A stretch of DNA of 45,229 nt from a phage, in sequence record OZ346221.1; one strand, 5' to 3'. The notes under the pieces are model-generated. The model did no database searches. It was given only the letters and a program-made list of their open reading frames with translations, and was not told where the DNA came from. This document shows, piece after piece, positions 5,225-40,798 of the stretch (the stretch's first letter is position 1; the number at the start of each line of letters is the position of its first letter). The position numbers were made by a program, and so were the translations under genes.

Positions 5225-5262
5225 TCCTCGTTGTTGGTGTGCAACCAATATATGCAACCAAT
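5225..5262 (-). promoter_or_regulatory. sigma70-like promoter for the 4453..5217 gene, with tandem TGCAACCAAT motifs
   Basis: On the - strand: TTGCAA, 17-nt spacer, TATATT, then leader ATTGGTTGCACACCAAC...GAGGA; leader nearly identical to the one upstream of 40493 (approximate coordinates). Confidence 0.45.
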
Positions 5263-10114: not shown

Positions 10115-10492
10115 TTGGAGAATACTACAATGGCTAAAGCACCACTCTTCACACTTGACCCTAAACCGACCTTTAAGCTGCCGATTGAGATCCCGCGTCC
10201 TGGCGAGAACGAGCCGGGCAAGATGACGTTTACCGTACGCCACCGCCCGATCGACGAATTTTCGCAAACCATGCAGGACACCGAACGAAAGCTATCGGAA
10301 TATGACGACAATGACCCAGACGGCTTTAACGTTATGGTCGAGGCCATCATGCACGTCGCGGAAGGCTGGAATCTGCCAGACGAATTTAACGCGGAGAACG
10401 TCCGCCGCCTGGTGGTCAACTATCCGCGCGCGTTCGGTGTGTTTCACACGTCGTACTATCTCGAGCTGATGGGGTTGCGTGAAAAAAACTAA
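10115..10492 (+). CDS. tail assembly chaperone (lambda G-like)
   Basis: 125 aa between major tail and tape measure genes; ends ...REKN with A_AAA_AAC slippery heptamer at the last codons. Confidence 0.65.
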   Translation: MENTTMAKAPLFTLDPKPTFKLPIEIPRPGENEPGKMTFTVRHRPIDEFSQTMQDTERKLSEYDDNDPDGFNVMVEAIMHVAEGWNLPDEFNAENVRRLVVNYPRAFGVFHTSYYLELMGLREKN

Positions 10493-10806
10493 TTGAGGCG
10501 GCGCGACGCTTTTATGGCCCGCCGCCACCCTCCGAAGATTTAGCCGCAAGTTTATGGGGTGCGGCCCCCGAAGATGTTTGTCCGCCTGTTGCGCTATGGC
10601 CCGACAACGCGAAGGTAGTCGCAGTCTTCACAGATTGCTCCACGCAATGGCGCACCGGATTTGGTGGCGCATACGGCATCGACTACGGCGTGCTGGAGTG
10701 GCTATTTAAGATGCACGGTATCGAAAACGAACAGCGCGCGTTTAAAGATATCAAGCTAATGGAACGAATCGCGCTTGATGAAATGGCGCAGCAGAACCCC
10801 GCATAA
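10115..10806 (+). CDS. tail assembly chaperone GT-like fusion by programmed -1 frameshift
   Basis: The -1 frame is open from 10483 to a TAA at 10804-10806 and has no start codon of its own; slippery A_AAA_AAC at 10483-10489 matches the lambda G/GT arrangement. Confidence 0.55.
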
Positions 10807-10810
10807 TGCA

Positions 10811-10964
10811 GCGGGACAGATCGGGACGTCCCGTTTTGTCCCACCCCTGAAATGTGCATACCTATTCGAATTTATTGCATAAACTAAGCGGGACAGATCG
10901 GGACGTCCCGTTTTGTCCCACCCCTGAAATGTGCATACCTATTCGAATTTATTGCATAAACTAA
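10811..10964. repeat. 77-bp direct tandem repeat (2 units) containing the palindrome GGGACGTCCC
   Basis: Two adjacent near-identical units beginning GCGGGACAGATCGGGACGTCCCGTTTTGTCCC and ending TTATTGCATAAACTAA. Confidence 0.8.
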
Positions 10965-11121
10965 GCGGGACAAAAAGCGGGACAAACAAGGGGCGGGACA
11001 AAGCGGGACAGCACCCCGTCCCCACCAGTGCTGCCGCGGGGTTTAGCCGATCGGGACAGCGGGACAGCACCCCAGTCTTTCAGACTAGACGGGGGTCAGT
11101 GGCCCCCCTCGTCTGAGACTG
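10958..11121. repeat. iteron element copy A (six GCGGGACA-type direct repeats plus a GC-rich hairpin)
   Basis: CTAAGCGGGACAAAAAGCGGGACAAACAAGGGGCGGGACAAAGCGGGACAGCACC...CGGGACAGCGGGACAGCACCCCAG...GACGGGGGTCAGTGGCCCCCCTCGTC; flanks identical to the copy at 40113..40276. Confidence 0.75.
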
Positions 11122-11188
11122 AATAAGGATTGTTTTAAAATCGCTGATACAATGACAATCGGCAACTGCATAAAAAGGGGACTGCATA

Positions 11189-13831
11189 ATGGCAGATCAA
11201 GCGGCAGGCATCACGCTGAAGGCTGATGTTGCACAAATCAGAACGGCAAATACTGTGCTGGACTCCTTCGCACAGAAATCCGAGAACACAGAAAACAAGG
11301 TTAAGAAATTAAACGACACCCTCGGCAAATCCAAAAAGGTGACGAGTGACGCCGCGGGCGGAATGGAGAAGCTGGCGACTGAATCGCAGCGCGCCGCCGA
11401 TGGCATGACGAAACAGGAGCGACTTGCCAACAGGTTAGGCATGTCGACCAAAAACCTGGGCTTTGCCTCGCGTAACGCCGCATTCCAGTTACAGGATATC
11501 GCTGTAACGCTTGAGATGGGTATGCCGGTGCACCGCGTCATGCTTCAGCAGTTACCGCAGTTAACTGGGGCGTTCGGTGGATTGGGTAACACGCTGCGTT
11601 TTGTTGCTGGCTTCCTCGGTCCGGTAGGGACCGGCATTGCAGCACTAACGGCAACGTTAGGCGTAGGGGTGGCAATTACGTCCCGCGCGGAGAACCAGGT
11701 CGCCGCGCTTAACAAGACGCTGGCACTTTCCGGTAACATTTCCGGCCTGACGGCAAACCAGATCCTGGTGCTATCCGAGAACGCCGAGCGCATGGGCGGG
11801 TCGTTCCGCAAGACGCGTGACACAATCCAGGCGCTGGCGGCGGCGGGTGTGAAAGCGGGGGGTGACTTCGGCGCACTGGCGAAGGTAGTGAATGACTTCG
11901 CGAAGGTGTCCAGCCAGCCGATCGAGGATGTGGTCGCGGCGGTGGCGAAGCTGTCAACCGACCCCGTTGGCGGACTGCGTGCGCTGGCGGATAAGTATCA
12001 CGTCGTAAACGAAGCGCAGATCCAGCAGGTACAGTCGCTCGTTGATGCGGGTCGTGAGACAGACGCAGTTGCGTTGGCTAACAAAACAGCCGCTGCGTCG
12101 TTCACCAGCATGACCAATGAAATCAAGTCCAACATGGGTACGCTTGAGCGGTCGATGAACGTCGTCACATCGGCAGCCAAATCAATGTGGGACGCCATCC
12201 TGGATGTGGGCCGCGCGCAGTCCTCCAATGAATCCGAGATGAAAGCGCGTGAGTCATTGCAGCGACTAACCACGGCTTACTATGCCGAGATGAAAGCGGT
12301 AAACGCTGCCGGTGGGGTAATGACTGAAGCGCAGAAAGCGCGTATTAACATGCTTTACAGCGAACTGGTCGCCCAGGAGAAAGTAGTGGCGTCGCTCACC
12401 CTGCGCAACCGTGCGGAGCGGGACAACGCCAGCGCCGCGGACGAAGCAGCAAAGGCGAACGAGGAGGCCAACCGCACCGCCCGCGACCGCGCCGCGTTTG
12501 AGAAGGAGTACGCAACCAACGCGAAGAGGCGCGCCGACGAGATCGCCCGCCTCAATTTGCTGAATAAGCGCGGCGTGATTGACGAGAAAGAGCTTGCCGA
12601 GGCGGTGAAGCAGGTAAACGAGCGTTACAAAGACCCCGCCCCGAAGAAGGCCGCGGCTGTTCGCGTGGATGCCGGTATGAAAATGCTGGAAGTTGCACGG
12701 AGCGAACTGGCCCAGCTTCGAGAATCCGGCAAGCAGATCGAAGCCAACGCGTCTACGCAGACCCGCACGCAACGCGCTCAAGCGGCCCTAAACAAGCTGA
12801 TCGCGGATAATGAACAGTTAATCGCAGCAAGCAAAGAAAGAGCACTAACGGCAGCAGAAAAGCAGCAGATGGTCGAATTCGGACGCGTGAAGGAAGTACG
12901 CGAGCAGATCGTCGAAGAAGCCAAATTGCTGGACGCGAAAGAGAAGCAGGTCAAGGCGCACGCGCAGATCGACGCCTTCGTCAAGAACCAGAACGCCGAG
13001 CTAAAAGCCACCGCGGCGGGCTATGCGCTTTCCACTCGCGAAGCGGCTAACCTGCGCGAAGAATTGCAGCTAATTGACCGCCTTAAGCGGGTGGGCGCTA
13101 GCGATACCGATATTGATCTGGCGGTGTCTAAACTGCGCGAAGTGCAGGAAGCACAGACCGGTGCTAACGCCTCGCTATGGGATGGATTCAGCCGCGGGCT
13201 TAAGGATAGCGTGGATGAAATGGGTAACGGCTATACGCAGATGACGTCACTCACAAAATTCACGTTCGGCGCTATGCAGGACACGATGAACGAGTTTTTC
13301 GAGACTGGCAAGCTGAACGCAAAGGATATGGTTAAGTCCATCCTGAGCGAATTAATCAAGCTGGCTACATCGCAAGCATTCAAGTCCATCGTTAGCGCTT
13401 TCGGTGGCGACGGCGGCAAAAACGGATTGTTCGGCGCTATCTTCTCCGGCCTCACTAAGAATGCGGACGGCGGAGCGTACGCAGGAGGCAATCTCGCTGC
13501 CTATTCGGGGAAAGTGGTAAGCCAGCCTACCTTTTTCAGTTATGGCGTCCAGGCGTTCGCTAAAGGCGCTGGATTGATGGGTGAGGCCGGACCCGAGGCC
13601 ATCATGCCACTGAAGCGCGGGCCTGACGGTAAGCTGGGCGTTGCCGCTGCCGGTGTTGGGGGTGGGATGATTGTAACGACCAACGTGAACATGGGGACCG
13701 GTAAGACGGATGCCAGTGTGAGCGGGCCGGACCCACGCACCGCGCAGGCGTTCGGAAAGCAAATCACCGAGGCGGTCAAGGCCGAGATCGTGAAAGCGAC
13801 GAAACCGGGTGGTGTACTTTACAAACGATGA
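11189..13831 (+). CDS. tail tape measure protein
   Basis: 880 aa, long Ala/Gln/Glu-rich helical protein between the chaperone pair and the tail tip genes. Confidence 0.8.
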   Translation: MADQAAGITLKADVAQIRTANTVLDSFAQKSENTENKVKKLNDTLGKSKKVTSDAAGGMEKLATESQRAADGMTKQERLANRLGMSTKNLGFASRNAAFQLQDIAVTLEMGMPVHRVMLQQLPQLTGAFGGLGNTLRFVAGFLGPVGTGIAALTATLGVGVAITSRAENQVAALNKTLALSGNISGLTANQILVLSENAERMGGSFRKTRDTIQALAAAGVKAGGDFGALAKVVNDFAKVSSQPIEDVVAAVAKLSTDPVGGLRALADKYHVVNEAQIQQVQSLVDAGRETDAVALANKTAAASFTSMTNEIKSNMGTLERSMNVVTSAAKSMWDAILDVGRAQSSNESEMKARESLQRLTTAYYAEMKAVNAAGGVMTEAQKARINMLYSELVAQEKVVASLTLRNRAERDNASAADEAAKANEEANRTARDRAAFEKEYATNAKRRADEIARLNLLNKRGVIDEKELAEAVKQVNERYKDPAPKKAAAVRVDAGMKMLEVARSELAQLRESGKQIEANASTQTRTQRAQAALNKLIADNEQLIAASKERALTAAEKQQMVEFGRVKEVREQIVEEAKLLDAKEKQVKAHAQIDAFVKNQNAELKATAAGYALSTREAANLREELQLIDRLKRVGASDTDIDLAVSKLREVQEAQTGANASLWDGFSRGLKDSVDEMGNGYTQMTSLTKFTFGAMQDTMNEFFETGKLNAKDMVKSILSELIKLATSQAFKSIVSAFGGDGGKNGLFGAIFSGLTKNADGGAYAGGNLAAYSGKVVSQPTFFSYGVQAFAKGAGLMGEAGPEAIMPLKRGPDGKLGVAAAGVGGGMIVTTNVNMGTGKTDASVSGPDPRTAQAFGKQITEAVKAEIVKATKPGGVLYKR

Positions 13832-21270: not shown

Positions 21271-21350
21271 GGTATCATCCCCTATATTTGGTTGAGTTTT
21301 AGTATTACACCGCTCAACCTGGATTGCAACCAATTTACGAGGATTTAGCT

Positions 21351-22919
21351 ATGGCAGCGGGTACGCTATCCGTAACGAACAATAGCAAGGCGGTAGTAGG
21401 GGTCGGCACAACGTTTACCGCGTTTAAAGCTGGCGACTTCTTAACGCTGGTGGTAGGGCAAGTTCCTTACACCGTGGCGATCGCATCAATCAAAAGTAAC
21501 ACGGCGCTTACGCTGGTGCTGCCGTTCGACGGCCCGACGGCAACCGGCCTAGCCTGGGACGGCATCAAACGTGACACCATGTCATTGACTACGATGGGCG
21601 TTACCGTCCAGGCACAGAAAGCATTTCGTTTGATGATCGCCGATGAAAACAACTGGCGTGCAATCTTCGGCGACGCTGAAGAAATCACCGTAACGCTGCC
21701 GAACGGGCAAGTCATGCAGGGTATGTCATGGGGCTATCTGTCGCAGTTGATGAAACAGATCGACCCAGTGGAAATGCGCGACCTGCAACAACAAGCCGCC
21801 GCATCGGAAGCAGCCGCGCAAGGATTTCGCAATGAGGCAGAAGGCTTCAAGACCGAGACGGCGGGTATTCGCGACGCCACCAATACCATCAAGACGCAGA
21901 CGAACCAGATCAAAACTGATACGCAGGCCATCAAGACGCAGACGAACCAGATCAAGACGGATACGCAGGCCATCAAGACGCAGACGAACCAGATCAAGAC
22001 GGATACGCAGGCCATCAAGACGCAGACGAACCAGATCAAGACTGACACCGGCGTTATTCGAGATCAGGCCAATACAGCGAAGAGGGACGCGCAAGCCGCC
22101 CGCGATGCCGCGCAGGGGTATCGGGACGAAGCCGAAGACTTCAAAAACGCGATCGACCCTACGCAATTCATGAAGAAGTCGCAGAACCTGGCAGACGTCG
22201 CAGATAAATCGGCGGCACGCGCTAATCTTGGCGTTGGTGATGATAGTATCGTTAAACACGCAACATTACGTCTGAACGGAGGCGAATCGCTAACCTTCAA
22301 TGATGTCGAAAGAAACGGTTTGATTATATCAAACGCGTCTTTCGGGATGGATAGCTGGGTCGGGCAGACGATGCATAAGTGGTACACGGATTGGACACGA
22401 TCTGGCTTGGTCAGGGGCGGCGATGCCCACTTATCGGACTACCGTGTCCACGTGTGGAAGGATGGTTATACGGAGGCTTTATTCCGCTTCCTACCGGACG
22501 GCAGGCTGATTAGTGGTAACAGCAGCAACCCTTCGGTTAACGAGTTCCAGAAAGCGGCGCTATCGGACCGCGACCTTAAAAAAGAAATCCAATACACTGA
22601 CGGCGAGGAAAGCTACAACCGCGTTCGTCAATGGCTTCCGGCAATGTTCAAGTATAAGGAGTCTGACGTACAGCGATACGGCCTTATCGCACAGGATCTG
22701 GCAAGGATTGACCCAGAATATGTGCACTTGCTGCCGGGTTATGCCATTTATGAGGATATCAAGGGGGTGGACGAGGAAGGCAACGAAGTTGTAGTCGACC
22801 GAAAGGAAATCGGGTATACGGACGATGTGCTGTCACTAGATAGTAACGTGCTGTTGATGGATCTGTGTGCCGCCTTCGTTCACCTGTTGCGGAAAGTGGA
22901 AAAGCTGGAAGGTAAATAA
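21351..22919 (+). CDS. tail fibre protein with C-terminal S74-type intramolecular chaperone domain
   Basis: 522 aa from internal ATG with GAGGA RBS; C-terminal SDRDLKKEI...YGLIAQDL signature; 14-aa tandem repeats AIKTQTNQIKTDTQ in the shaft. Confidence 0.75.
   Translation: MAAGTLSVTNNSKAVVGVGTTFTAFKAGDFLTLVVGQVPYTVAIASIKSNTALTLVLPFDGPTATGLAWDGIKRDTMSLTTMGVTVQAQKAFRLMIADENNWRAIFGDAEEITVTLPNGQVMQGMSWGYLSQLMKQIDPVEMRDLQQQAAASEAAAQGFRNEAEGFKTETAGIRDATNTIKTQTNQIKTDTQAIKTQTNQIKTDTQAIKTQTNQIKTDTQAIKTQTNQIKTDTGVIRDQANTAKRDAQAARDAAQGYRDEAEDFKNAIDPTQFMKKSQNLADVADKSAARANLGVGDDSIVKHATLRLNGGESLTFNDVERNGLIISNASFGMDSWVGQTMHKWYTDWTRSGLVRGGDAHLSDYRVHVWKDGYTEALFRFLPDGRLISGNSSNPSVNEFQKAALSDRDLKKEIQYTDGEESYNRVRQWLPAMFKYKESDVQRYGLIAQDLARIDPEYVHLLPGYAIYEDIKGVDEEGNEVVVDRKEIGYTDDVLSLDSNVLLMDLCAAFVHLLRKVEKLEGK
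21885..22049 (+). repeat. 42-bp in-frame tandem repeat (about 3.9 units) inside the tail-fibre gene
   Basis: GCCATCAAGACGCAGACGAACCAGATCAAGACGGATACGCAG repeated; units 2 and 3 identical, units 1 and 4 slightly different. Confidence 0.8.
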
Positions 22920-25974: not shown

Positions 25975-26012
25975 GACACCCTCAATATAATGCAACCAAT
26001 ATGGTTATGCAA
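25975..26012 (-). promoter_or_regulatory. sigma70-like promoter with TGCAACCAAT motifs, for the 25686..25937 gene
   Basis: On the - strand: TTGCAT, 17-nt spacer, TATATT, followed by a hairpin plus T-run in the leader (approximate coordinates). Confidence 0.35.
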
Positions 26013-26017
26013 CCAAT

Positions 26018-35020: not shown

Positions 35021-35527
35021 TTAATCTTCCAGTTCGAAATAGGTTTCGACGATTTCTTTTAACTCTGTGTGGAAGTCTTCGACGTCGTCATCTTCCAGCT
35101 TGGCGATTGATTTGATCTCGAACGACTCCAGCAGGTCGTCGAATTCGTCGTTCGCATCGTCGTCATCACCACCGGCGATAATCGCGGCATACTGTTTGAT
35201 TTCGTCGCGCATCTCCGCCAGCGGATCAGCATCTTTCTTACCTTTGCCGTTCGCCGGTGCTTTTTTAGCCTTAGCCGGTTTTTCGTCTTCGGCGTCTTCG
35301 TCGTCATCTTCTACGACTTCTTTTTTGGCCTTACCTTTCGCCGGTGCTTTTTTAGCTTTAGCCGGTTTTTCGTCTTCGGCGGCATCGTCGTCATCTTCTT
35401 TTTTGGCCTTAGACGGCTTCTTGTCTTCCTGCTTACCAACGGCAGCGCCAACAGTTTCATAATGCTTTGCGATGGTTTCCAGTGCTACTACGCCGCGAGT
35501 GATCAGGTTTACGATTTGCTCAAACAT
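35021..35527 (-). CDS. acidic low-complexity protein, first gene of the leftward early operon
   Basis: 168 aa from internal ATG (MFEQIVNL...) with GGAGAT RBS; two KPAKAKKAPA-type units and a strongly acidic C-terminal third. Confidence 0.5.
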   Translation of the reverse strand: MFEQIVNLITRGVVALETIAKHYETVGAAVGKQEDKKPSKAKKEDDDDAAEDEKPAKAKKAPAKGKAKKEVVEDDDEDAEDEKPAKAKKAPANGKGKKDADPLAEMRDEIKQYAAIIAGGDDDDANDEFDDLLESFEIKSIAKLEDDDVEDFHTELKEIVETYFELED

Positions 35528-35723
35528 GGTATATCTCCGATTGGTTAAGTTTAGGTGTCGGCAGTTAACTTCGTCGGTGGCCTTAACATATTGCCCGGTT
35601 GCGCGTTCTCCCGTTCGGGTAGTGGACCGGGTTATATAATCACGGTTGGGAATCCTGACACTTCGATCCGGCCCCTGCGTTGCCCCTCTCCAGTTTGCGT
35701 CCTGCATCCTGTCGACGGGGGGA

Positions 35724-35928: not shown

Positions 35929-36258
35929 ATGAATATTGACGACGCAATCGAAATGTTAACTAAGACTGTTTGCAGTGAGACAAGCCGGTCCTGGGCATAT
36001 ACCGATGCCGTGGGTGCGGTGCTATTTGAGATCGAACGTCTGCGACTTACCGAAAAAGAATTGCGCGCGAAGCTGGAATTACTCAACGGTACGGCAGCAA
36101 GCAAGCTGCAAAAGCACAATGAGGAAATGGAAGAATACAAAAAACAGGTTATCCGTTTGCGCGATGAGGGGAAGTCATGGGCAATGATCGCGGAGTTGAC
36201 AGGAATTAACCAAAGCACCGTGCGCTCTTGGGTACGCAATAACAAAACTTCGAAGTAA
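35929..36258 (+). CDS. HTH DNA-binding protein, putative early regulator
   Basis: 109 aa; coiled-coil middle and C-terminal helix-turn-helix-like GKSWAMIAELTGINQSTVRSWV. Confidence 0.5.
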   Translation: MNIDDAIEMLTKTVCSETSRSWAYTDAVGAVLFEIERLRLTEKELRAKLELLNGTAASKLQKHNEEMEEYKKQVIRLRDEGKSWAMIAELTGINQSTVRSWVRNNKTSK

Positions 36259-36268
36259 GGCAACGGCA

Positions 36269-38533
36269 ATGAGCTTAATTAAATTCGCTGTAACAAGACC
36301 CGCTAAAAAAGGCGAAAAAGCCAGGGCGGAAAACTTCCAGATGACAACTGATGAATTTTTCGAATTTATCAATGATGCGAAAGAAATATCATCAGTGCAT
36401 ATCAACAAGACCGAGGATAAAGCCGAGTATGCGCGCCGCAAGCGCAAGGCCGATGGCATCGTGGCATATACCAGTGACGGCCTACGCCGTAAGACCAGCG
36501 CGGTGGACCGCTCGATCCTGTTCTTTGATATCGACCGTACCGACACTCGCACCTTGCGCCGCTGCCGTAAGGCTTTCATCGATGCGGGGCTGGAGCACGT
36601 ATTCCATACAACAACCGGCGACCGCCACCCGCTGAAAGGCGGCACGCGTTGCGCACGTTTCCTTGTGCTCACAGACAAGCCCGTACCGGCGGAAGACCTG
36701 GGCCGCGTCCAGTACGCGCTGTTAGACCAACTGGGCCTGTCTGATGTGGACTTCGACGATTGCACCAAAGACACAAACCGCCTGATGTACCTACCACACC
36801 AGCAGTCTGTCATTAAGTGCCACTACGGAAAGCGCGCCAGTGTGCGTCGTCTGCTTCGCCGGGCTGACAGGCTGGGAGTGGAGAAAGAGGAAGTACGCCG
36901 CGAGCTTACCCAGGGCGACGACGCAGTGGCTGACGGCATTCTGGACTGGTGCTTCCAAGCAGGATTCGAGGAGTTATCCTCCGGTCGCGGTTATGAAGTG
37001 CCGTGCCCGAACGAACATCTGCACAGCGGCGAAGGGTCGACGGCTATTATAGTCAAGGATGGCGAGATCCGTTTCAAGTGTATGCACACCGGCAACGAGT
37101 GTTGCTCTGAGCTGAACAGACACCAGCACCTGGCGCTACGTCTTATCGGGATACCGGACCACCTGAACGTCGAGCCGCACAACATGTCACGTAAGCAAAT
37201 CGCCGCCATCCTCCCAGGGCTGGACGACGAGGAAGTCGAATCCTTATATGAACATATTGTTGATGCGGTTGGCGACGGCGAAGAATACGGCGTGTGCACC
37301 GATGCGGATCTGGATAACGAGCCGGTTGCGCTGTTCAGTAAGCACGACCCGATTATCGAGGGGTTGATTAACTTTAAATCGACCTGGTACATGGCGGGTG
37401 AGTCGAATATCGGTAAGTCTTTCTACGTGCTGGGCCAGATGGGCGCGGTTGCCGCGGGTATTCCGTTTGGTGGCGCGAAGGTCGTCCAGTCTCATTGCTT
37501 CTATTTCGACGCGGAAGGTGGCGAAGCCTCCAACCAGCGTAAAGAAGCATTGCAGATTAAATATGAGCACGACCTGGACAAGCTGCACATTATCGATCTG
37601 CAGTCACGCGGCTGGGATATCACCAGCAAATCGGGCTTGCGCGAAGTTATCAGCTTTATCAACCGCACCGCTAACGGCGAACCGGTTGGCCTGGTGGCGT
37701 TCGACTCACTAAACCAGACTGTTGCGTTGCGGTCCGCCGAGGCTAAACCGTTCGACGAGAACAACGCCAGCGATATGGGTGAAGTGGTCAAAGCGCTGAA
37801 GGCCATCGCGGAAAATACAGGTGGCAGTGCGGGCGTCATCCACCACCCGGCTAAAGGTGCAAACGGCAGCAGAACGCCACGCGGGTCCGGCGCGCTGCAT
37901 GGTGCTGTCGATTCTGCGTTCTTCCTGGAACAGCCGGACGACAACCAGCCCGGACAATTGAACCTGTATCACGAAAAGTCACGTAACGGCATCAAGCAAG
38001 CGCCGCGCGGCTTCGTCCTGCTCAAGTGCAAGGTGAAGGTGGATCTCCGCAAGTCAGAAGCGTTCGAGGCGCACCAGTCCACCAGCACCGGGCCAGACTT
38101 CGGCGACGTGGTTGCCGGATGGGACGTCAAGCCGATTGCCTCCACGCCACGCGACGAGACTCTCTACCTCGTACCGGTTGCCCTGGCACCGTTCGCTATT
38201 GAACAGGCGAAGGCGGCGGGCAAGGCCGCGGTTAAGGAAGAGAACACCGCCGGACCGCGCAACGAAAAAGAGAAAGTGCTTTATGCGGCACTGGAAAAAC
38301 TGATGGAAGATAACCCGTACCATACTGGATTCAGTAAATCGGCAATTGTCCGCCAGGCGGGACTCGCAAAAGGTGGCACTTCGACGAAGGCAATCGACGA
38401 TATGGTGGAGCGCGGGGTAATAGGTTTTTATACAGATCCGCACACCGGGGCCATCTATGGGTCTTCTAATTTGGTCATCAAATCGGATATCCCTATCACG
38501 CTTTCCGCGACCGATGACGATTTAAAAGATTAA
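36269..38533 (+). CDS. primase-helicase (zinc-binding primase-type N-terminal region, RecA-like ATPase, C-terminal winged-helix-like domain)
   Basis: 754 aa; Cys/His cluster CPNEHLHSGEG...CMHTGNECC; Walker A MAGESNIGKS; VAFDSLNQ; C-terminal GFSKSAIVRQAGL...AIDDMVERGVIGF. Confidence 0.75.
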   Translation: MSLIKFAVTRPAKKGEKARAENFQMTTDEFFEFINDAKEISSVHINKTEDKAEYARRKRKADGIVAYTSDGLRRKTSAVDRSILFFDIDRTDTRTLRRCRKAFIDAGLEHVFHTTTGDRHPLKGGTRCARFLVLTDKPVPAEDLGRVQYALLDQLGLSDVDFDDCTKDTNRLMYLPHQQSVIKCHYGKRASVRRLLRRADRLGVEKEEVRRELTQGDDAVADGILDWCFQAGFEELSSGRGYEVPCPNEHLHSGEGSTAIIVKDGEIRFKCMHTGNECCSELNRHQHLALRLIGIPDHLNVEPHNMSRKQIAAILPGLDDEEVESLYEHIVDAVGDGEEYGVCTDADLDNEPVALFSKHDPIIEGLINFKSTWYMAGESNIGKSFYVLGQMGAVAAGIPFGGAKVVQSHCFYFDAEGGEASNQRKEALQIKYEHDLDKLHIIDLQSRGWDITSKSGLREVISFINRTANGEPVGLVAFDSLNQTVALRSAEAKPFDENNASDMGEVVKALKAIAENTGGSAGVIHHPAKGANGSRTPRGSGALHGAVDSAFFLEQPDDNQPGQLNLYHEKSRNGIKQAPRGFVLLKCKVKVDLRKSEAFEAHQSTSTGPDFGDVVAGWDVKPIASTPRDETLYLVPVALAPFAIEQAKAAGKAAVKEENTAGPRNEKEKVLYAALEKLMEDNPYHTGFSKSAIVRQAGLAKGGTSTKAIDDMVERGVIGFYTDPHTGAIYGSSNLVIKSDIPITLSATDDDLKD

Positions 38534-38708
38534 ATTCTGCGCGCATTGGTTGCCGATATGGTAATTCCCATATCGGTGAATGATTAAATTTTGCGCGCAT
38601 TGGTTGCCATTTTGAGTGTTTTTACCTGGTCGTATTGGTTGCCGTGTAGTGTAAATATAGTGAATAGTTATGCAATAAAACTGCATAAAGTAAGCGGACA
38701 GAAAGCAC
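37229..38708 (+). repeat. tandem duplication unit, copy 1 (3' half of primase-helicase gene plus downstream non-coding DNA)
   Basis: Near-identical to 38709..40188 with scattered substitutions; unit about 1480 bp; junction next to GTAAGCGGACAGAAAGC (approximate coordinates). Confidence 0.8.
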
Positions 38709-40188
38709 GAGGAAGTCGAATCCTTATATGAACATATTGTTGATGCGGTTGGCGACGGCGAAGAATACGGCGTGTGCACCGATGCGGATCTGGATAACGA
38801 GCCGGTTGCGCTGTTCAGTAAGCACGACCCGATCATCGAGGGGTTGATTAACTTTAAATCGACCTGGTACATGGCGGGTGAGTCGAACATCGGTAAATCG
38901 TTCTACGTGCTGGGGCAGATGGGTGCGGTTGCCGCGGGTATCCCGTTTGGCGGTGCGAAGGTCGTCCAGTCCCATTGCTTCTATTTCGACGCGGAAGGTG
39001 GCGAAGCCTCCAACCAGCGTAAGGAAGCATTGCAGATCAAATACGAGCACGACCTGGACAAGCTGCACATTATTGACCTGCAATCACGCGGCTGGGATAT
39101 CACCAGCAAGTCGGGCTTGCGCGAAGTTATCAGCTTTATCAACCGCACCGCTAACGGCGAACCGGTTGGCCTGGTGGCGTTCGACTCACTCAACCAGACT
39201 GTTGCGCTGCGGTCCGCCGATGCTAAACCGTTCGACGAGAACAACGCCAGCGATATGGGCGAAGTGGTCAAGGCGCTGAAGGCCATTGCGGAAAATACAG
39301 GCGGCAGTGCGGGCGTCATCCACCACCCGGCTAAAGGTGCAAACGGCAGCAGAACGCCTCGCGGGTCCGGCGCGCTTCATGGTGCTGTCGATTCCGCGTT
39401 CTTCCTGGAACAACCGGACGACAACCAGCCCGGACAATTGAACCTGTATCACGAAAAGGCGCGTAACGGCATCAAGCAAGCGCCGCGCGGATTCGTCCTG
39501 CTTAAGTGCAAAGTTAAGGTAGATCTCCGCAAGTCCGAAGCGTTCGAAGCCCACCAGTCCACCAGCGCCGGGCCAGACTTCGGCGATGTGGTTGCCGGTT
39601 GGGACGTCAAGCCGATCGCATCCACGCCACGCGACGAGACTCTTTACCTCGTACCGGTCGCCCTGGCACCGTTCGCCATCGAACAGGCGAAGGCCGCTGG
39701 CAAAGCCGCAGTTAAGGAAGAAAACGCCGCCGTACCGCGCAACGAAAAAGAGAAAGTGCTTTATGCGGCACTGGAAAAACTGATGGAAGATAACCCGGAC
39801 CATACCGGATTCAGTAAATCGGCAATTGTCCGCCAGGCTGGGCTTGCGAAAGGTGGCACATCGACGAAGGCAATCGACGATATGGTCGAGCGCGGCGTGC
39901 TCGGTTTTTATACCGATCCGCACACCGGGGCCATCTACGGGTCGTCGAATATTGTCATTAAAACGAGTATACCCATCACGCTTTCTGCGACCGATGATGA
40001 TTTAAAAGATTAAATGTTGCGCGCATTGGTTGCCATTTCGAGTGTTTTTAGCTGGTCGCATTGGTTGCCGTGTAGTGTAAATATATTGAATAGTTATGCA
40101 ATAAAACTGCATAAACTAAGCGGGACAAAAAGCGGGACAAACAAGGGGCGGGACAAAGCGGGACAGCACCCCGTCCCGCCCCCGGATG
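38709..40188 (+). repeat. tandem duplication unit, copy 2
   Basis: Second copy of the 3' half of the primase-helicase gene, followed by the complete iteron element (approximate coordinates). Confidence 0.8.
38772..40013 (+). CDS. stand-alone paralogue of the primase-helicase C-terminal half (ATPase plus winged-helix-like domain)
   Basis: 413-aa ORF with GTG start and no obvious RBS; about ten amino-acid differences from the parent, most nucleotide differences synonymous; may be an untranslated remnant. Confidence 0.45.
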   Translation: MCTDADLDNEPVALFSKHDPIIEGLINFKSTWYMAGESNIGKSFYVLGQMGAVAAGIPFGGAKVVQSHCFYFDAEGGEASNQRKEALQIKYEHDLDKLHIIDLQSRGWDITSKSGLREVISFINRTANGEPVGLVAFDSLNQTVALRSADAKPFDENNASDMGEVVKALKAIAENTGGSAGVIHHPAKGANGSRTPRGSGALHGAVDSAFFLEQPDDNQPGQLNLYHEKARNGIKQAPRGFVLLKCKVKVDLRKSEAFEAHQSTSAGPDFGDVVAGWDVKPIASTPRDETLYLVPVALAPFAIEQAKAAGKAAVKEENAAVPRNEKEKVLYAALEKLMEDNPDHTGFSKSAIVRQAGLAKGGTSTKAIDDMVERGVLGFYTDPHTGAIYGSSNIVIKTSIPITLSATDDDLKD

Positions 40189-40276
40189 ACGCGGCCTGGC
40201 GGGGAGCGGGACAGCGGGACAGCACCCCAGTCTTTCAGACTAGACGGGGGTCAGTGGCCCCCCTCGTCTGAGACTG
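40113..40276. repeat. iteron element copy B (candidate replication origin)
   Basis: Six GCGGGACA-type repeats plus the same GC-rich hairpin as copy A; directly downstream of the primase-helicase region; followed by an AT-rich stretch with TGCGGNTTG repeats. Confidence 0.75.
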
Positions 40277-40435
40277 CATAAAATCCTGGATTGCAAAATA
40301 CACGGCAGCATGTTGCGGATTGCGGTCGTCGCGGAACTAGGCAACCAATGCGGGTTGTATTATGTTGAGTGAAAAATGCGGTTTGCAGTCTCAGCAGATA
40401 GCGATCAACTTTTTCATGCGCGTGATTAATATTGG

Positions 40436-40464
40436 TTGCATCCGGCCTGGCACCTTGCTATATT
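40436..40464 (+). promoter_or_regulatory. sigma70-like promoter with ATTGGTTGCA motifs, for the 40493 gene
   Basis: TTGCAT, 17-nt spacer, TATATT, then leader GGTTGCACACCAACATGAGGA before the ATG (approximate coordinates). Confidence 0.45.
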
Positions 40465-40492
40465 GGTTGCACACCAACATGAGGACTGAACA

Positions 40493-40798
40493 ATGAAAGC
40501 AATTATCTGGAATTACACCCTGGCCGTGGCAAAGCTGGAAGAAGCGAAAGCACTGAACGGCAACGTAGACCAGGCGCTGCAGATTGCGGTACTGGCGCAC
40601 CAATCAATTCGTGACGCGCTCTACCGCATGGACGCCAGCCTGGATGACCTGAAGCCGTTGCGTATGGCAATTCACGAATATGCCAAGGCATTTGCCCGTG
40701 AGCGCCTGGCGTATCGCTTCGGGATCGGTGAGACGGCAGTGACAAACGTCGCCCGGATTAAAGCCCAGCGCGAACTATTCGCCCAGCTTGCGAAATAA
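40493..40798 (+). CDS. hypothetical protein
   Basis: 101 aa with GAGGA RBS and the conserved promoter/leader element upstream. Confidence 0.5.
   Translation: MKAIIWNYTLAVAKLEEAKALNGNVDQALQIAVLAHQSIRDALYRMDASLDDLKPLRMAIHEYAKAFARERLAYRFGIGETAVTNVARIKAQRELFAQLAK

Follow-up and report, generated by a model that had tools for sequence, protein, structure and literature searches.

Why does a 45-kb virulent siphophage carry the same array of short repeated words, followed by the same hairpin, at two places some 29 kb apart, one of them inside its tail operon? The question is raised by the genome OZ346221.1, a single stretch of 45,229 nt that is referred to here, at its full length, as the window. 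It is a complete genome of the Dhillonvirus type, which encompasses the HK578/SO-1/SSL-2009a-like siphophages of E. coli, and it is opened at the large terminase gene. The first of the two places, region A, lies between the tail assembly chaperone genes and the tape measure protein (TMP) gene, and the second, region B, follows the gene for a primase-helicase. The feature is real and ancient within this phage group, and its arrays appear to be binding sites for a phage protein that differs in specificity from one lineage to the next. As judged from sequence comparison, there is about an even chance that regions A and B together constitute a bipartite, iteron-type origin of replication that is read by the phage primase-helicase.

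The repeated element and its two copies

A first-pass annotation of the window had described tandem 77-bp units ahead of an element that recurs about 29 kb away, and had placed the whole between the chaperone genes and the tape measure gene. These statements hold. Tandem Repeats Finder reports a repeat of period 77 at 10810-10972 (2.1 copies, 100% matches), and a repeat search of the genome resolves two identical units of 77 nt, at 10810-10886 and 10887-10963. Each of these contains GCGGGACAGATCGGGACGTCCCG, and GGGACGTCCC is found in the window at 10823 and 10900 only. The repeat search also pairs 10932-11126 with 40087-40281, at an offset of 29,155 bp. When the two copies are aligned, 70 identical positions (10953-11022, equivalent to 40108-40177) are followed by a differing centre of 29 bp (11023-11051) and then by a further 70 identical positions (11052-11121), after which come a single mismatch and ATAA. 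A shared element with a divergent centre had thus been correctly recognized, with sizes that need revision: the element measures 169-174 bp rather than about 164 bp, and its centre 29 bp rather than about 35 bp.

The upstream border of region A is formed by the chaperone genes (10115-10807, plus strand), in which an open reading frame (ORF) at 10115-10492 matches Phage_TAC_4 (Pfam PF08748, E = 1.7e-23) and a DUF1799 part, annotated or called in relatives, ends with the TAA at 10805-10807. The downstream border is the TMP gene (11189-13831, plus strand), homologues of which carry PF06791/PF09718. The iteron word GCGGGACA occurs 15 times in the window, always on the plus strand, against an expectation of 2.27 +/- 1.32, and none of 100 shuffles reached that count; 13 of the 15 copies fall within the two loci. 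Region A holds 11 occurrences of GGGAC and five of its complement GTCCC, the corresponding numbers for region B being six and one.

Both copies of the element, which lie on the plus strand, have their parts in the same order. An AT-rich stretch of around 40-55 bp, ending in TGCATAAA.TAAGC, leads into four direct copies of GCGGGACA and an inverted GTCCC, which are followed by the 29-bp centre, two more direct words and a hairpin module of 49 nt. Immediately 5' of the arrays, these stretches have an AT content of 71-72%, whereas the genome as a whole has a G+C content of 54.7%. Copy A, the core of region A (10953-11126, shared with 40108-40281), is composed of a left iteron array (10965-11022) with direct GCGGGACA at 10965, 10977, 10993 and 11003 and the inverted GTCCC at 11018, a centre (11023-11051) that is unlike that of copy B and is of the A type (CCAGTGCTGCCGCGG...) in all relatives, a right pair of direct iterons (11052-11072, CGGGACAGCGGGACAGCACCC) and the hairpin module (11073-11121, CAGTCTTTCAGACTAGACGGGGG-loop-CCCCCCTCGTCTGAGACTG). 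Ahead of it, the first 77-bp unit (10810-10886, plus strand) harbors a nested palindromic cluster, GCGGGAC-N3-CGGGAC/GTCCCG-N4-GTCCC (10811-10842), and a spacer (10849-10886) that is 71% AT and includes two TGCATA words; the second unit (10887-10963, plus strand) is 100% identical to the first. In region B, an AT-rich stretch (40066-40119, 72% AT) lies directly upstream of the iterons of copy B (40108-40281), which are found at 40120, 40132, 40148, 40158, 40206 and 40214, with an inverted GTCCCG at 40173. The hairpin module of this copy (40228-40276) begins 215 nt past the stop of the nearest helicase ORF. The ORFs 10931-11116 and 40014-40271, which appear as 'hypothetical protein' in some records, are taken here as non-coding, since most copies of the element have no stop-free frame, indels of one base separate the copies, and the centres of A and B differ.

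Distribution and selection

With a 1-kb query around the site, 159 phage records were matched (80-96% identity), nearly all being Dhillonviruses of Escherichia or Shigella. Every one of the 159 holds the element, at 329 places in total or about two per record, and both copies are also present in independent metagenome assemblies, which disposes of the concern that the two-copy feature might be an artefact of assembly. Both loci are in fact annotated as repeat_region in Sodalis phage SO-1 (NC_013600 / GQ502199), where 'region A' (11214-11597) is found between gp16 and the tape measure gene and 'region B' (40178-40657) after the helicase-primase; the element of the window is 92% (A) and 88% (B) identical to that of SO-1. 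The description given there, in the portion preceding its final words ('possible ...'), is of direct, inverted and palindromic repeats that are similar to one another. Full-text literature searches found no paper discussing the SO-1 regions, and no description of a replication origin, a transcript map or repeats for Dhillonvirus.

In a metagenome collection, an exact 23-mer from the hairpin was found solely on contigs of 43.7-45.0 kb (n = 12). Eleven of these have two or three matched stretches and one has a single stretch, some of the extra ones being located at contig ends. The same 23-mer is in none of 185,579 bacterial and archaeal genomes. Three more distant phages, Cornellvirus PhiSTP1, Pectobacterium phage Sabo and Klebsiella phage NewHawk, have neither the gap between the chaperone and TMP genes nor such repeats, and the element is therefore confined to Dhillonvirus and its close sister lineages.

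Over 13 region-A sequences, third codon positions in the genes on either side have a mean pairwise identity of 0.73-0.79, and the AT-rich spacers within the 77-bp units one of 0.77. The mean is 0.83 in the columns of the element that lie outside the words, 0.89 in the GGGAC/GTCCC columns of the 77-bp units, 0.945 in the GGGAC/GTCCC columns of the element and 0.948 in the hairpin module. At the level of aligned sequences, these values show the words and the hairpin to be under purifying selection. The length of the element is also held nearly constant, at 178 nt in 34 of 42 distinct copies and at 177-179 nt in all of them, and such one-base indels as occur offset one another. This combination suggests a constraint on spacing.

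Concerted change of the word in sister lineages

Contigs of sister lineages were reached through homologues of the primase-helicase at 66-70% identity; a homologue search with its C-terminal 174 aa alone gave no match, and the full-length query was needed. In gene order, and in having the two intergenic regions, the contigs agree with the window; it is the repeated word that differs. Four classes can be distinguished. The GGGAC class, to which the window also belongs, is represented at region B by contigs L098 and L102 and at region A by L108 and L110. The GTGGCA class is represented at region B by L099 and L100 and at region A by L106, which is the other end of the L099 contig, and L107, which comes from the same sample as L100. 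The GTGCCA class is known from region B of L101 and from region A of L109, a contig from L101's sample, and the GGTGCC class from region B of L104 and L105, region A not having been recovered.

In the three classes for which both sites are available, the count table shows both sites of a lineage to carry that lineage's word and next to none of the words of the others, apart from a stray GTGGCA in L098 and, in region B of the window, single complements attributable to chance. L104 and L105 also show GTGCCA and GTGGCA strings, of which the GTGCCA strings arise because GGTGCCA includes GTGCCA. The switch from one word to another involves between 5 and 16 words per site, at sites that are 16 or 29 kb apart. 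Such a concerted switch of whole arrays is to be expected if a sequence-specific binding protein encoded by the phage co-evolves with them. Gene conversion could spread a variant word from place to place, but leaves unexplained how the new word comes to be tolerated.

The architecture of the element is the same in all classes, with an AT-rich leader, direct and inverted words, a centre, two direct words and the hairpin, followed by GAATAGAAATTCGCATATTCAT. The orientation of the words, in contrast, flips between lineages, the second word being inverted in L107, L108 and L110. These flips fit a series of independent protein-binding sites and not a conserved RNA fold, and, along with the perfect duplex palindromes, they favour an interpretation of the arrays as sites bound in duplex form. 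We consider it highly probable that the arrays are the binding sites of a lineage-specific phage protein. Separately, the variable centres of the sister lineages share a TGATTTATAAGGAG-like word that is absent from Dhillonvirus proper (L100, 6705-6730; L101, 2881-2906; L104, 5033-5050; L105, 2806-2822; L108, 1340-1362), and that could be a site for a host factor or a sequence resembling a -10 box or a Shine-Dalgarno sequence.

The hairpin module

The 49-nt module that closes each copy has the form CAGTCT-TTC-AGACT-AGACG-GGGGG-loop-CCCCC-C-T-CGTCT-G-AGACTG. It is kept at five of the six non-GGGAC sites that were read and is reshaped, yet still foldable, at the sixth, in L101. Variation is concentrated in the loop. 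Within the stem, L108 and L110 share a compensatory change in which AGACG:CGTCT becomes GGACG:CGTCC, and in L101 GGGGG:CCCCC becomes GGGAG:CTCCC while the small loop of the first hairpin changes from TTC to AAG. With DNA parameters, the hairpin has a folding z-score of -3.5, and eight variants all form long hairpins with scores between -2.7 and -4.3. Stems were judged by folding each sequence on its own, as length variation shifts the 3' arm in a column-wise count of pairs. The first arm, CAGTCT, has two possible pairing partners, the adjacent AGACT and the distal AGACTG, and in L101 it is the middle segment that has this choice; the presence of the option in both forms makes a pair of alternative pairings a conserved property of the module.

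Within the GTGCCA lineage the two sites agree in their words and differ in their hairpins. The module at region B (L101, 2928-2990) is strongly remodelled, with another loop, the GGGAG/CTCCC stem and an inverted third arm, and that at region A (L109, 1068-1120) is of the consensus type. The two contigs derive from one sample and possibly, though not certainly, from one genome.

As an intrinsic terminator of the standard kind the hairpin has been ruled out, given that no T-run comes directly after the stem. The terminator scan did not list it, the nearest T-run in copy A is 10 nt past the stem, and copy B has none. Terminator-like matches on the minus strand within the arrays (10910-10889 and 40183-40144) are by-products of the inverted words. 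Over the whole window, a search of Rfam at gathering thresholds returned 0 matches, and ARAGORN returned none. Folding of the entire element as RNA gave z-scores of -1.7 and -2.2 for the plus strand and -0.6 for the minus strand. The active form of the hairpin could be DNA, either extruded or single-stranded, or it could be RNA.

A candidate reader of the word

The gene that precedes region B encodes a primase-helicase of 754 aa (36269-38533, plus strand), in which a putative N-terminal primase is followed by a RepA-like helicase of the RecA fold (residues 357-531) and a C-terminal winged helix (residues ~666-737, nt ~38264-38479). The protein matches Pfam AAA_25 (E = 2e-19) and PHROG 3228, 'replicative helicase-primase', and Foldseek aligns it to the RepA of RSF1010 (1g8y, 1nlf and 1olo) with target-normalised template modelling (TM) scores of 0.64-0.65. 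The N-terminal domain has no Pfam match; it matches PHROG families annotated as 'DNA primase' only (E about 1e-6) and contains DxD and HxxxGDRH-like motifs that were recognized by eye only. The winged helix, of around 75 residues, is predicted by AlphaFold2 with a local confidence (pLDDT) of 80-89 when the domain is modelled alone and about 67-83 in the full-length model.

It is this last domain that appears to track the word. Between word classes, the winged helix is 46-67% identical over 52 columns, versus 67-79% for the rest of the protein. The two proteins of the GGTGCC class, P0009 and P0013, are 71% identical to each other in the winged helix versus 50-67% to the other classes, and show no more than average similarity elsewhere in the protein. 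A divergent GGGAC lineage (P0011/P0012) has a winged helix that is 62-67% identical to that of the window and 52-62% to that of the GTGGCA lineage; in the remainder of the protein it is nearer to the GTGGCA lineage (73-77%) than to the window (69%). This pattern of co-variation is suggestive, and makes the C-terminal winged helix of the primase-helicase the best candidate for the reader of the word.

A second DNA-binding protein is encoded immediately upstream, by the gene for a 109-aa helix-turn-helix (HTH) protein (35929-36258, plus strand). Its HTH is invariant in all eight lineages compared, and as it stays unchanged while the word switches, the protein has been ruled out as the iteron reader. 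A different motif, ATTGGTTGC, occurs in 16 exact copies versus 0.54 expected, at intergenic or promoter positions (5241-5262, 21326, 24088, 25992-26017, 35731, 38545-38642, 40025-40068, 40341, 40431-40470 and 40996). Like the HTH of the 109-aa protein, it is invariant across all sister lineages, and this suggests that ATTGGTTGC and the protein form a regulator/operator pair.

Signals and insertions around the two regions

Each region is followed by a promoter-like site. Beyond region A, alignments point to a putative extended -10 element, TGATACAAT (11145-11153, plus strand), 35 nt before the ATG of the tape measure gene. The site is conserved in the aligned Dhillonvirus relatives, the GCTGATACAAT word recurs in L106 and L107, and L109 has GCTACAAT; a consensus promoter scan did not list it, and it has no -35 element. 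Around 150 bp beyond copy B, a putative promoter can be read from the sequence as TTGCAT-17-TATATT (40436-40464, plus strand), before the gene at 40493 and bracketed by ATTGGTTGC.

Between the first of these sites and the tape measure gene, at 11165-11189, there are two direct copies of ACTGCATAA, which lie 16 nt apart on either side of the Shine-Dalgarno sequence, the second overlapping the ATG. The repeat is conserved in the aligned Dhillonvirus relatives, one sequence having ACTGAATAA as the first copy, and it could be a translational or transcriptional operator. The string TGCATAA(A) that is seen at this repeat also begins each copy of the element. On the other side of region A, the gap between it and the chaperone genes is a hotspot for moron-like insertions: in the sister lineages, one or two small minus-strand genes (L107, 967-1140; L108, 670-1050; L109, 671-844; L110, 57-805) have been inserted there together with a bidirectional terminator.

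Gene conversion and duplication in this genome

In every relative, the upstream 77-bp units are diverged paralogues, each with unit-specific sequence, and it is only in this genome that they are identical, unit 1 having been overwritten by sequence of the unit-2 type. The best match to the pair in the database is 87-88%. As the sister lineages have one upstream unit only, the arrangement of two 77-bp units belongs to Dhillonvirus proper. The tandem units had initially been regarded as an extension of the element; they are real, but represent an old, genus-wide pair that is diverged in relatives and merely homogenised here.

A similar process appears to link the two distant sites. The left flanks of A and B are 100% identical in this genome, the highest value among the 19 genomes compared, and 83-98% identical in the other 18. 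The similarity of A to B within a genome is also slightly greater than that between genomes (permutation p = 0.0012 and 0.0022), and a metagenome phage, L078, has a chimeric copy in region B in which the left half of the centre is of the A type. The chimera and the permutation test together show, as far as such comparisons can, that A and B exchange sequence by gene conversion. The first-pass annotation had taken identical flanks around a diverged centre as the mark of function rather than of a recent copy. Selection is indeed seen, but the identity in this genome is in part the outcome of recent gene conversion.

The genome also carries a tandem duplication of 1.48 kb that spans 37227-40186, with its junction (38706/38707) inside a truncated third copy of the start of the element (TGCATAAAGTAAGCGG-ACAGAAAGC; 38682-38706, plus strand). 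The duplication creates an ORF of 413 aa (38772-40013, plus strand) that comprises the helicase and winged helix and is 97% identical to residues 342-754 of the full gene. The junction is in none of 50,697 phage records, and the duplication may be a real rearrangement or the join of two variants. It is improbable, though deserving of mention, that the identical 77-bp units and this duplication are partly artefacts of assembly or polishing, in which reads of two co-occurring variants were collapsed or joined. Such an origin would account for both being unique to this genome among the 50,697 records, and assemblers do break at the repeat, contigs starting or stopping inside it in L077, L080, L084, L090, L093, L099 and L106. 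The length of region A is, however, close to that of relatives (381 bp versus 384 bp in SO-1), which implies that nothing has been gained or lost; conversion from unit to unit would look the same; and the architecture of two sites is present in every relative.

More generally, metagenome and Logan contigs often begin or end inside the element, and L099 and L106 are the ends of one contig of 27.6 kb that reaches exactly from region A to region B. Assembler breaks at the element can in this way mimic genome ends. Elsewhere in the window, in-frame tandem repeats are found in coding regions, with a 42-bp repeat in 3.7 copies at 21886-22042, within the ORF 21324-22919, and an 81/87-bp repeat at 35232-35399, within an acidic ORF on the minus strand (35021-35707).

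A proposed bipartite origin and its alternatives

Regions A and B have the composition of an iteron origin, with at least three clustered copies of a short word of 5-8 bp in non-coding DNA and an adjoining AT-rich stretch. If they act as one, the winged helix of the primase-helicase would recognize the word, as its co-variation suggests. By analogy with known systems, several protomers would load on the array beside easily melted AT-rich DNA and assemble a hexameric helicase of the RepA kind. The hairpin, extruded or exposed as a single strand, would then provide an assembly or priming signal for the primase domain, in the manner of the stem-loop of pRN1 or the ssi sites of the IncQ plasmids. 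Region B, directly after the primase-helicase gene, would be the site nearest to where the protein is made, and region A, at a boundary between transcription units in the tail operon, would serve as another origin or else as a crr-like partner that is bridged to B by the same protein. In a stronger form of this proposal the two regions are an obligate pair. The primase-helicase would bridge A and B, and thereby physically couple the initiation of replication to the switching on of two late units, in a system that can be re-targeted through the word and the winged helix. We regard this stronger form, under which re-targeting would have occurred at least four times in this phage group, as rather unlikely.

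Several observations weigh against an origin that is read by the primase-helicase. Foldseek found no significant match for the model of the winged helix, returning generic winged helices of the MarR, Rio2 and H1 types at E >= 0.006. The co-variation of winged helix and word is seen among 9 proteins of 4 classes, with phylogeny as a confounder, and a simple rule relating the residues FSKS to GGGAC was right for P0012 and failed for P0009, which has FSKS with GGTGCC iterons. Another DNA-binding protein of the phage could be the reader. Exchange by gene conversion could also be enough to keep the words of A and B alike, though it would not explain why whole arrays switched. No DnaA boxes or sites for integration host factor (IHF) were found. 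The extremes of GC and AT skew, at 22.9 kb, follow gene orientation and are uninformative on the position of an origin. Finally, the placement of A and B just upstream of late-operon promoter-like sites, in the orientation of transcription, suits a role in transcription equally well.

Such a role would make the arrays control elements, whose words bind a lineage-specific regulator of the two late units that follow them, TMP and the tail genes after A and a set of small genes together with the lysis, terminase and head genes after B, with the hairpin marking a transcript boundary or processing site. This is the main rival to the origin, though an unlikely one. Both copies of the element precede conserved promoter-like sites and are oriented along transcription, the words of the main arrays are all on the coding strand, and in the divergent lineages region A is preceded by a canonical intrinsic terminator and sometimes by a moron gene on the minus strand. 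With a terminator before it in the sister lineages and a conserved promoter-like site after it, region A marks the edge of an operon in every lineage. The promoters of region B, however, carry the other invariant motif, ATTGGTTGC, the natural partner of the invariant HTH protein, which means that a regulator is already present. The distance from array to promoter is also unequal, at about 85-190 bp for A and about 215-315 bp for B, the hairpin has no T-run with which to terminate, and among transcription factors none was found to vary in step with the word classes, the sole domain seen to track them being that of the primase-helicase. The roles in replication and transcription are not mutually exclusive.

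There is little to be expected of a structured RNA, in which the transcribed 178-nt element would be a put-like element for processive antitermination or a protein-sponge RNA with GGA-containing words. The two copies are on the same strand at the 5' ends of late units, the hairpin is stable and its stem is kept through compensatory changes, and the plus strand folds better than the minus strand; on the other hand, the z-scores of the whole element are modest, no Rfam family matches at gathering thresholds, and the promoter scan detected none upstream of the arrays. The orientation and spacing of the array words vary between lineages, which leaves no conserved fold of the array, and perfect DNA palindromes (GGGACGTCCC), along with words in both orientations in the upstream units, are typical of duplex binding sites. 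CsrA requires a GGA core for binding, and the switch from GGGAC to GTGGCA and GTGCCA would deprive a sponge of the CsrA type of that core. Just as improbable is a different role in DNA, as a hotspot for recombination or gene conversion, an accessory site for concatemer resolution or packaging, or a decoy for a host defence or restriction protein. The exchange of sequence between A and B (the L078 chimera and a permutation p of about 0.001) and the ending of the 1.48-kb duplication inside a truncated iteron copy are in keeping with recombination, but this is an expected side effect of dispersed repeats and leaves the selection on words and hairpin unexplained. Packaging sites would be expected near terS. 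One Dhillonvirus has been reported as packaging by the headful mechanism, and for another a cos sequence, ATCTTAAGGG, has been reported (PMC10673088), which is absent from the window. A decoy, which had also been raised in the first-pass annotation, gained no support from anything found here, and its word would not change between lineages that infect similar hosts.

The interpretation of A and B as a bipartite origin turns an annotated repeat into a specific hypothesis that can be tested cheaply, as it names the cis sites, a probable reader domain and a set of natural variants, GGGAC, GTGGCA, GTGCCA and GGTGCC. Dhillonviruses are common model coliphages and candidates for therapy, among them HK578, SECphi18 and several of the BASEL phages. 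If the interpretation is true, it would provide a minimal origin for Dhillonvirus-based replicons and a natural series for the study of initiator/iteron co-evolution, and it would account for assemblies breaking at two fixed places. It would also advise caution in annotation, as the 'hypothetical protein' ORFs called across regions A and B would probably not be genes.

Comparison with known systems

The closest relative of the feature is the pair of regions in SO-1, which is the same element at the same two loci. It differs in that its two upstream units are diverged and that A and B are unlike in the right-hand iteron pair.

Satellite phage P4 is characterized by a crr of two 120-bp repeats, by the repeated word TGTTCACC and by the domain order of its alpha protein. 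The first-pass annotation had likened the second iteron site of the window to the ori/crr pair of P4, and in form the likeness is borne out: a short repeat is shared, in direct and inverted orientation, by two cis sites that lie apart, each lineage has the same word at both, and the two switch together. The gene of a multifunctional primase-helicase, with a C-terminal DNA-binding domain that is predicted here, adjoins one of the sites, and one is made of two long direct repeats, here of 77 bp each. Of the mechanisms weighed here, the analogy has the most support, as a proposal. The likeness does not extend to the protein family or to the word, and a role in replication would be by analogy. The helicase of the window is of the RecA fold and RepA-like (AAA_25), whereas that of P4 alpha belongs to superfamily 3 (SF3), and a phmmer search of the PDB with the primase-helicase gave the RepA of RSF1010 only (E = 0.46) and no P4 alpha chain. 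The repeated word is different, there is an additional conserved hairpin module, and the host of the element is a virulent siphophage of 45 kb with the second site inside its tail operon.

In the plasmid pRN1, a stem-loop located 3' of the gene for a primase/helicase/winged-helix protein (ORF904) is required for replication, and similar stem-loops have been reported in phages such as BIP-1 (PMC4234260). The window resembles pRN1 in having a conserved stem-loop 3' of the replication protein gene, with the integrity of the stem maintained, and in fitting a model in which the protein binds downstream of its own gene. It differs in the helicase, which is of the RecA/RepA fold here and of SF3 in pRN1, and in the N-terminal primase, which has no Pfam support as an archaeo-eukaryotic primase (AEP). 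Its hairpin is also shorter (49 nt versus about 100), a clear iteron array stands ahead of it, and a second full copy is present 29 kb away.

The oriV of the IncQ plasmid RSF1010 combines iterons, an AT-rich segment and the ssiA and ssiB hairpins, and is served by the RepA helicase, the RepB' primase and the RepC initiator. RepA is the closest helicase fold to that of the window, and the combination of iterons, AT-rich DNA and a hairpin that may be a signal for single-strand initiation is likewise shared. No RepC-like initiator turned up in the Pfam and PHROG scans of the neighbouring ORFs, beyond which no further search was made. In the phage, a single polypeptide unites the functions, and the genome has two sites, each with one hairpin on the plus strand, in contrast to the two hairpins on opposite strands of RSF1010. 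As the systems differ in helicase class, in words, in how many hairpins there are and on which strand, and in the order of the fused domains, the element is not a member of the P4, pRN1 or IncQ families.

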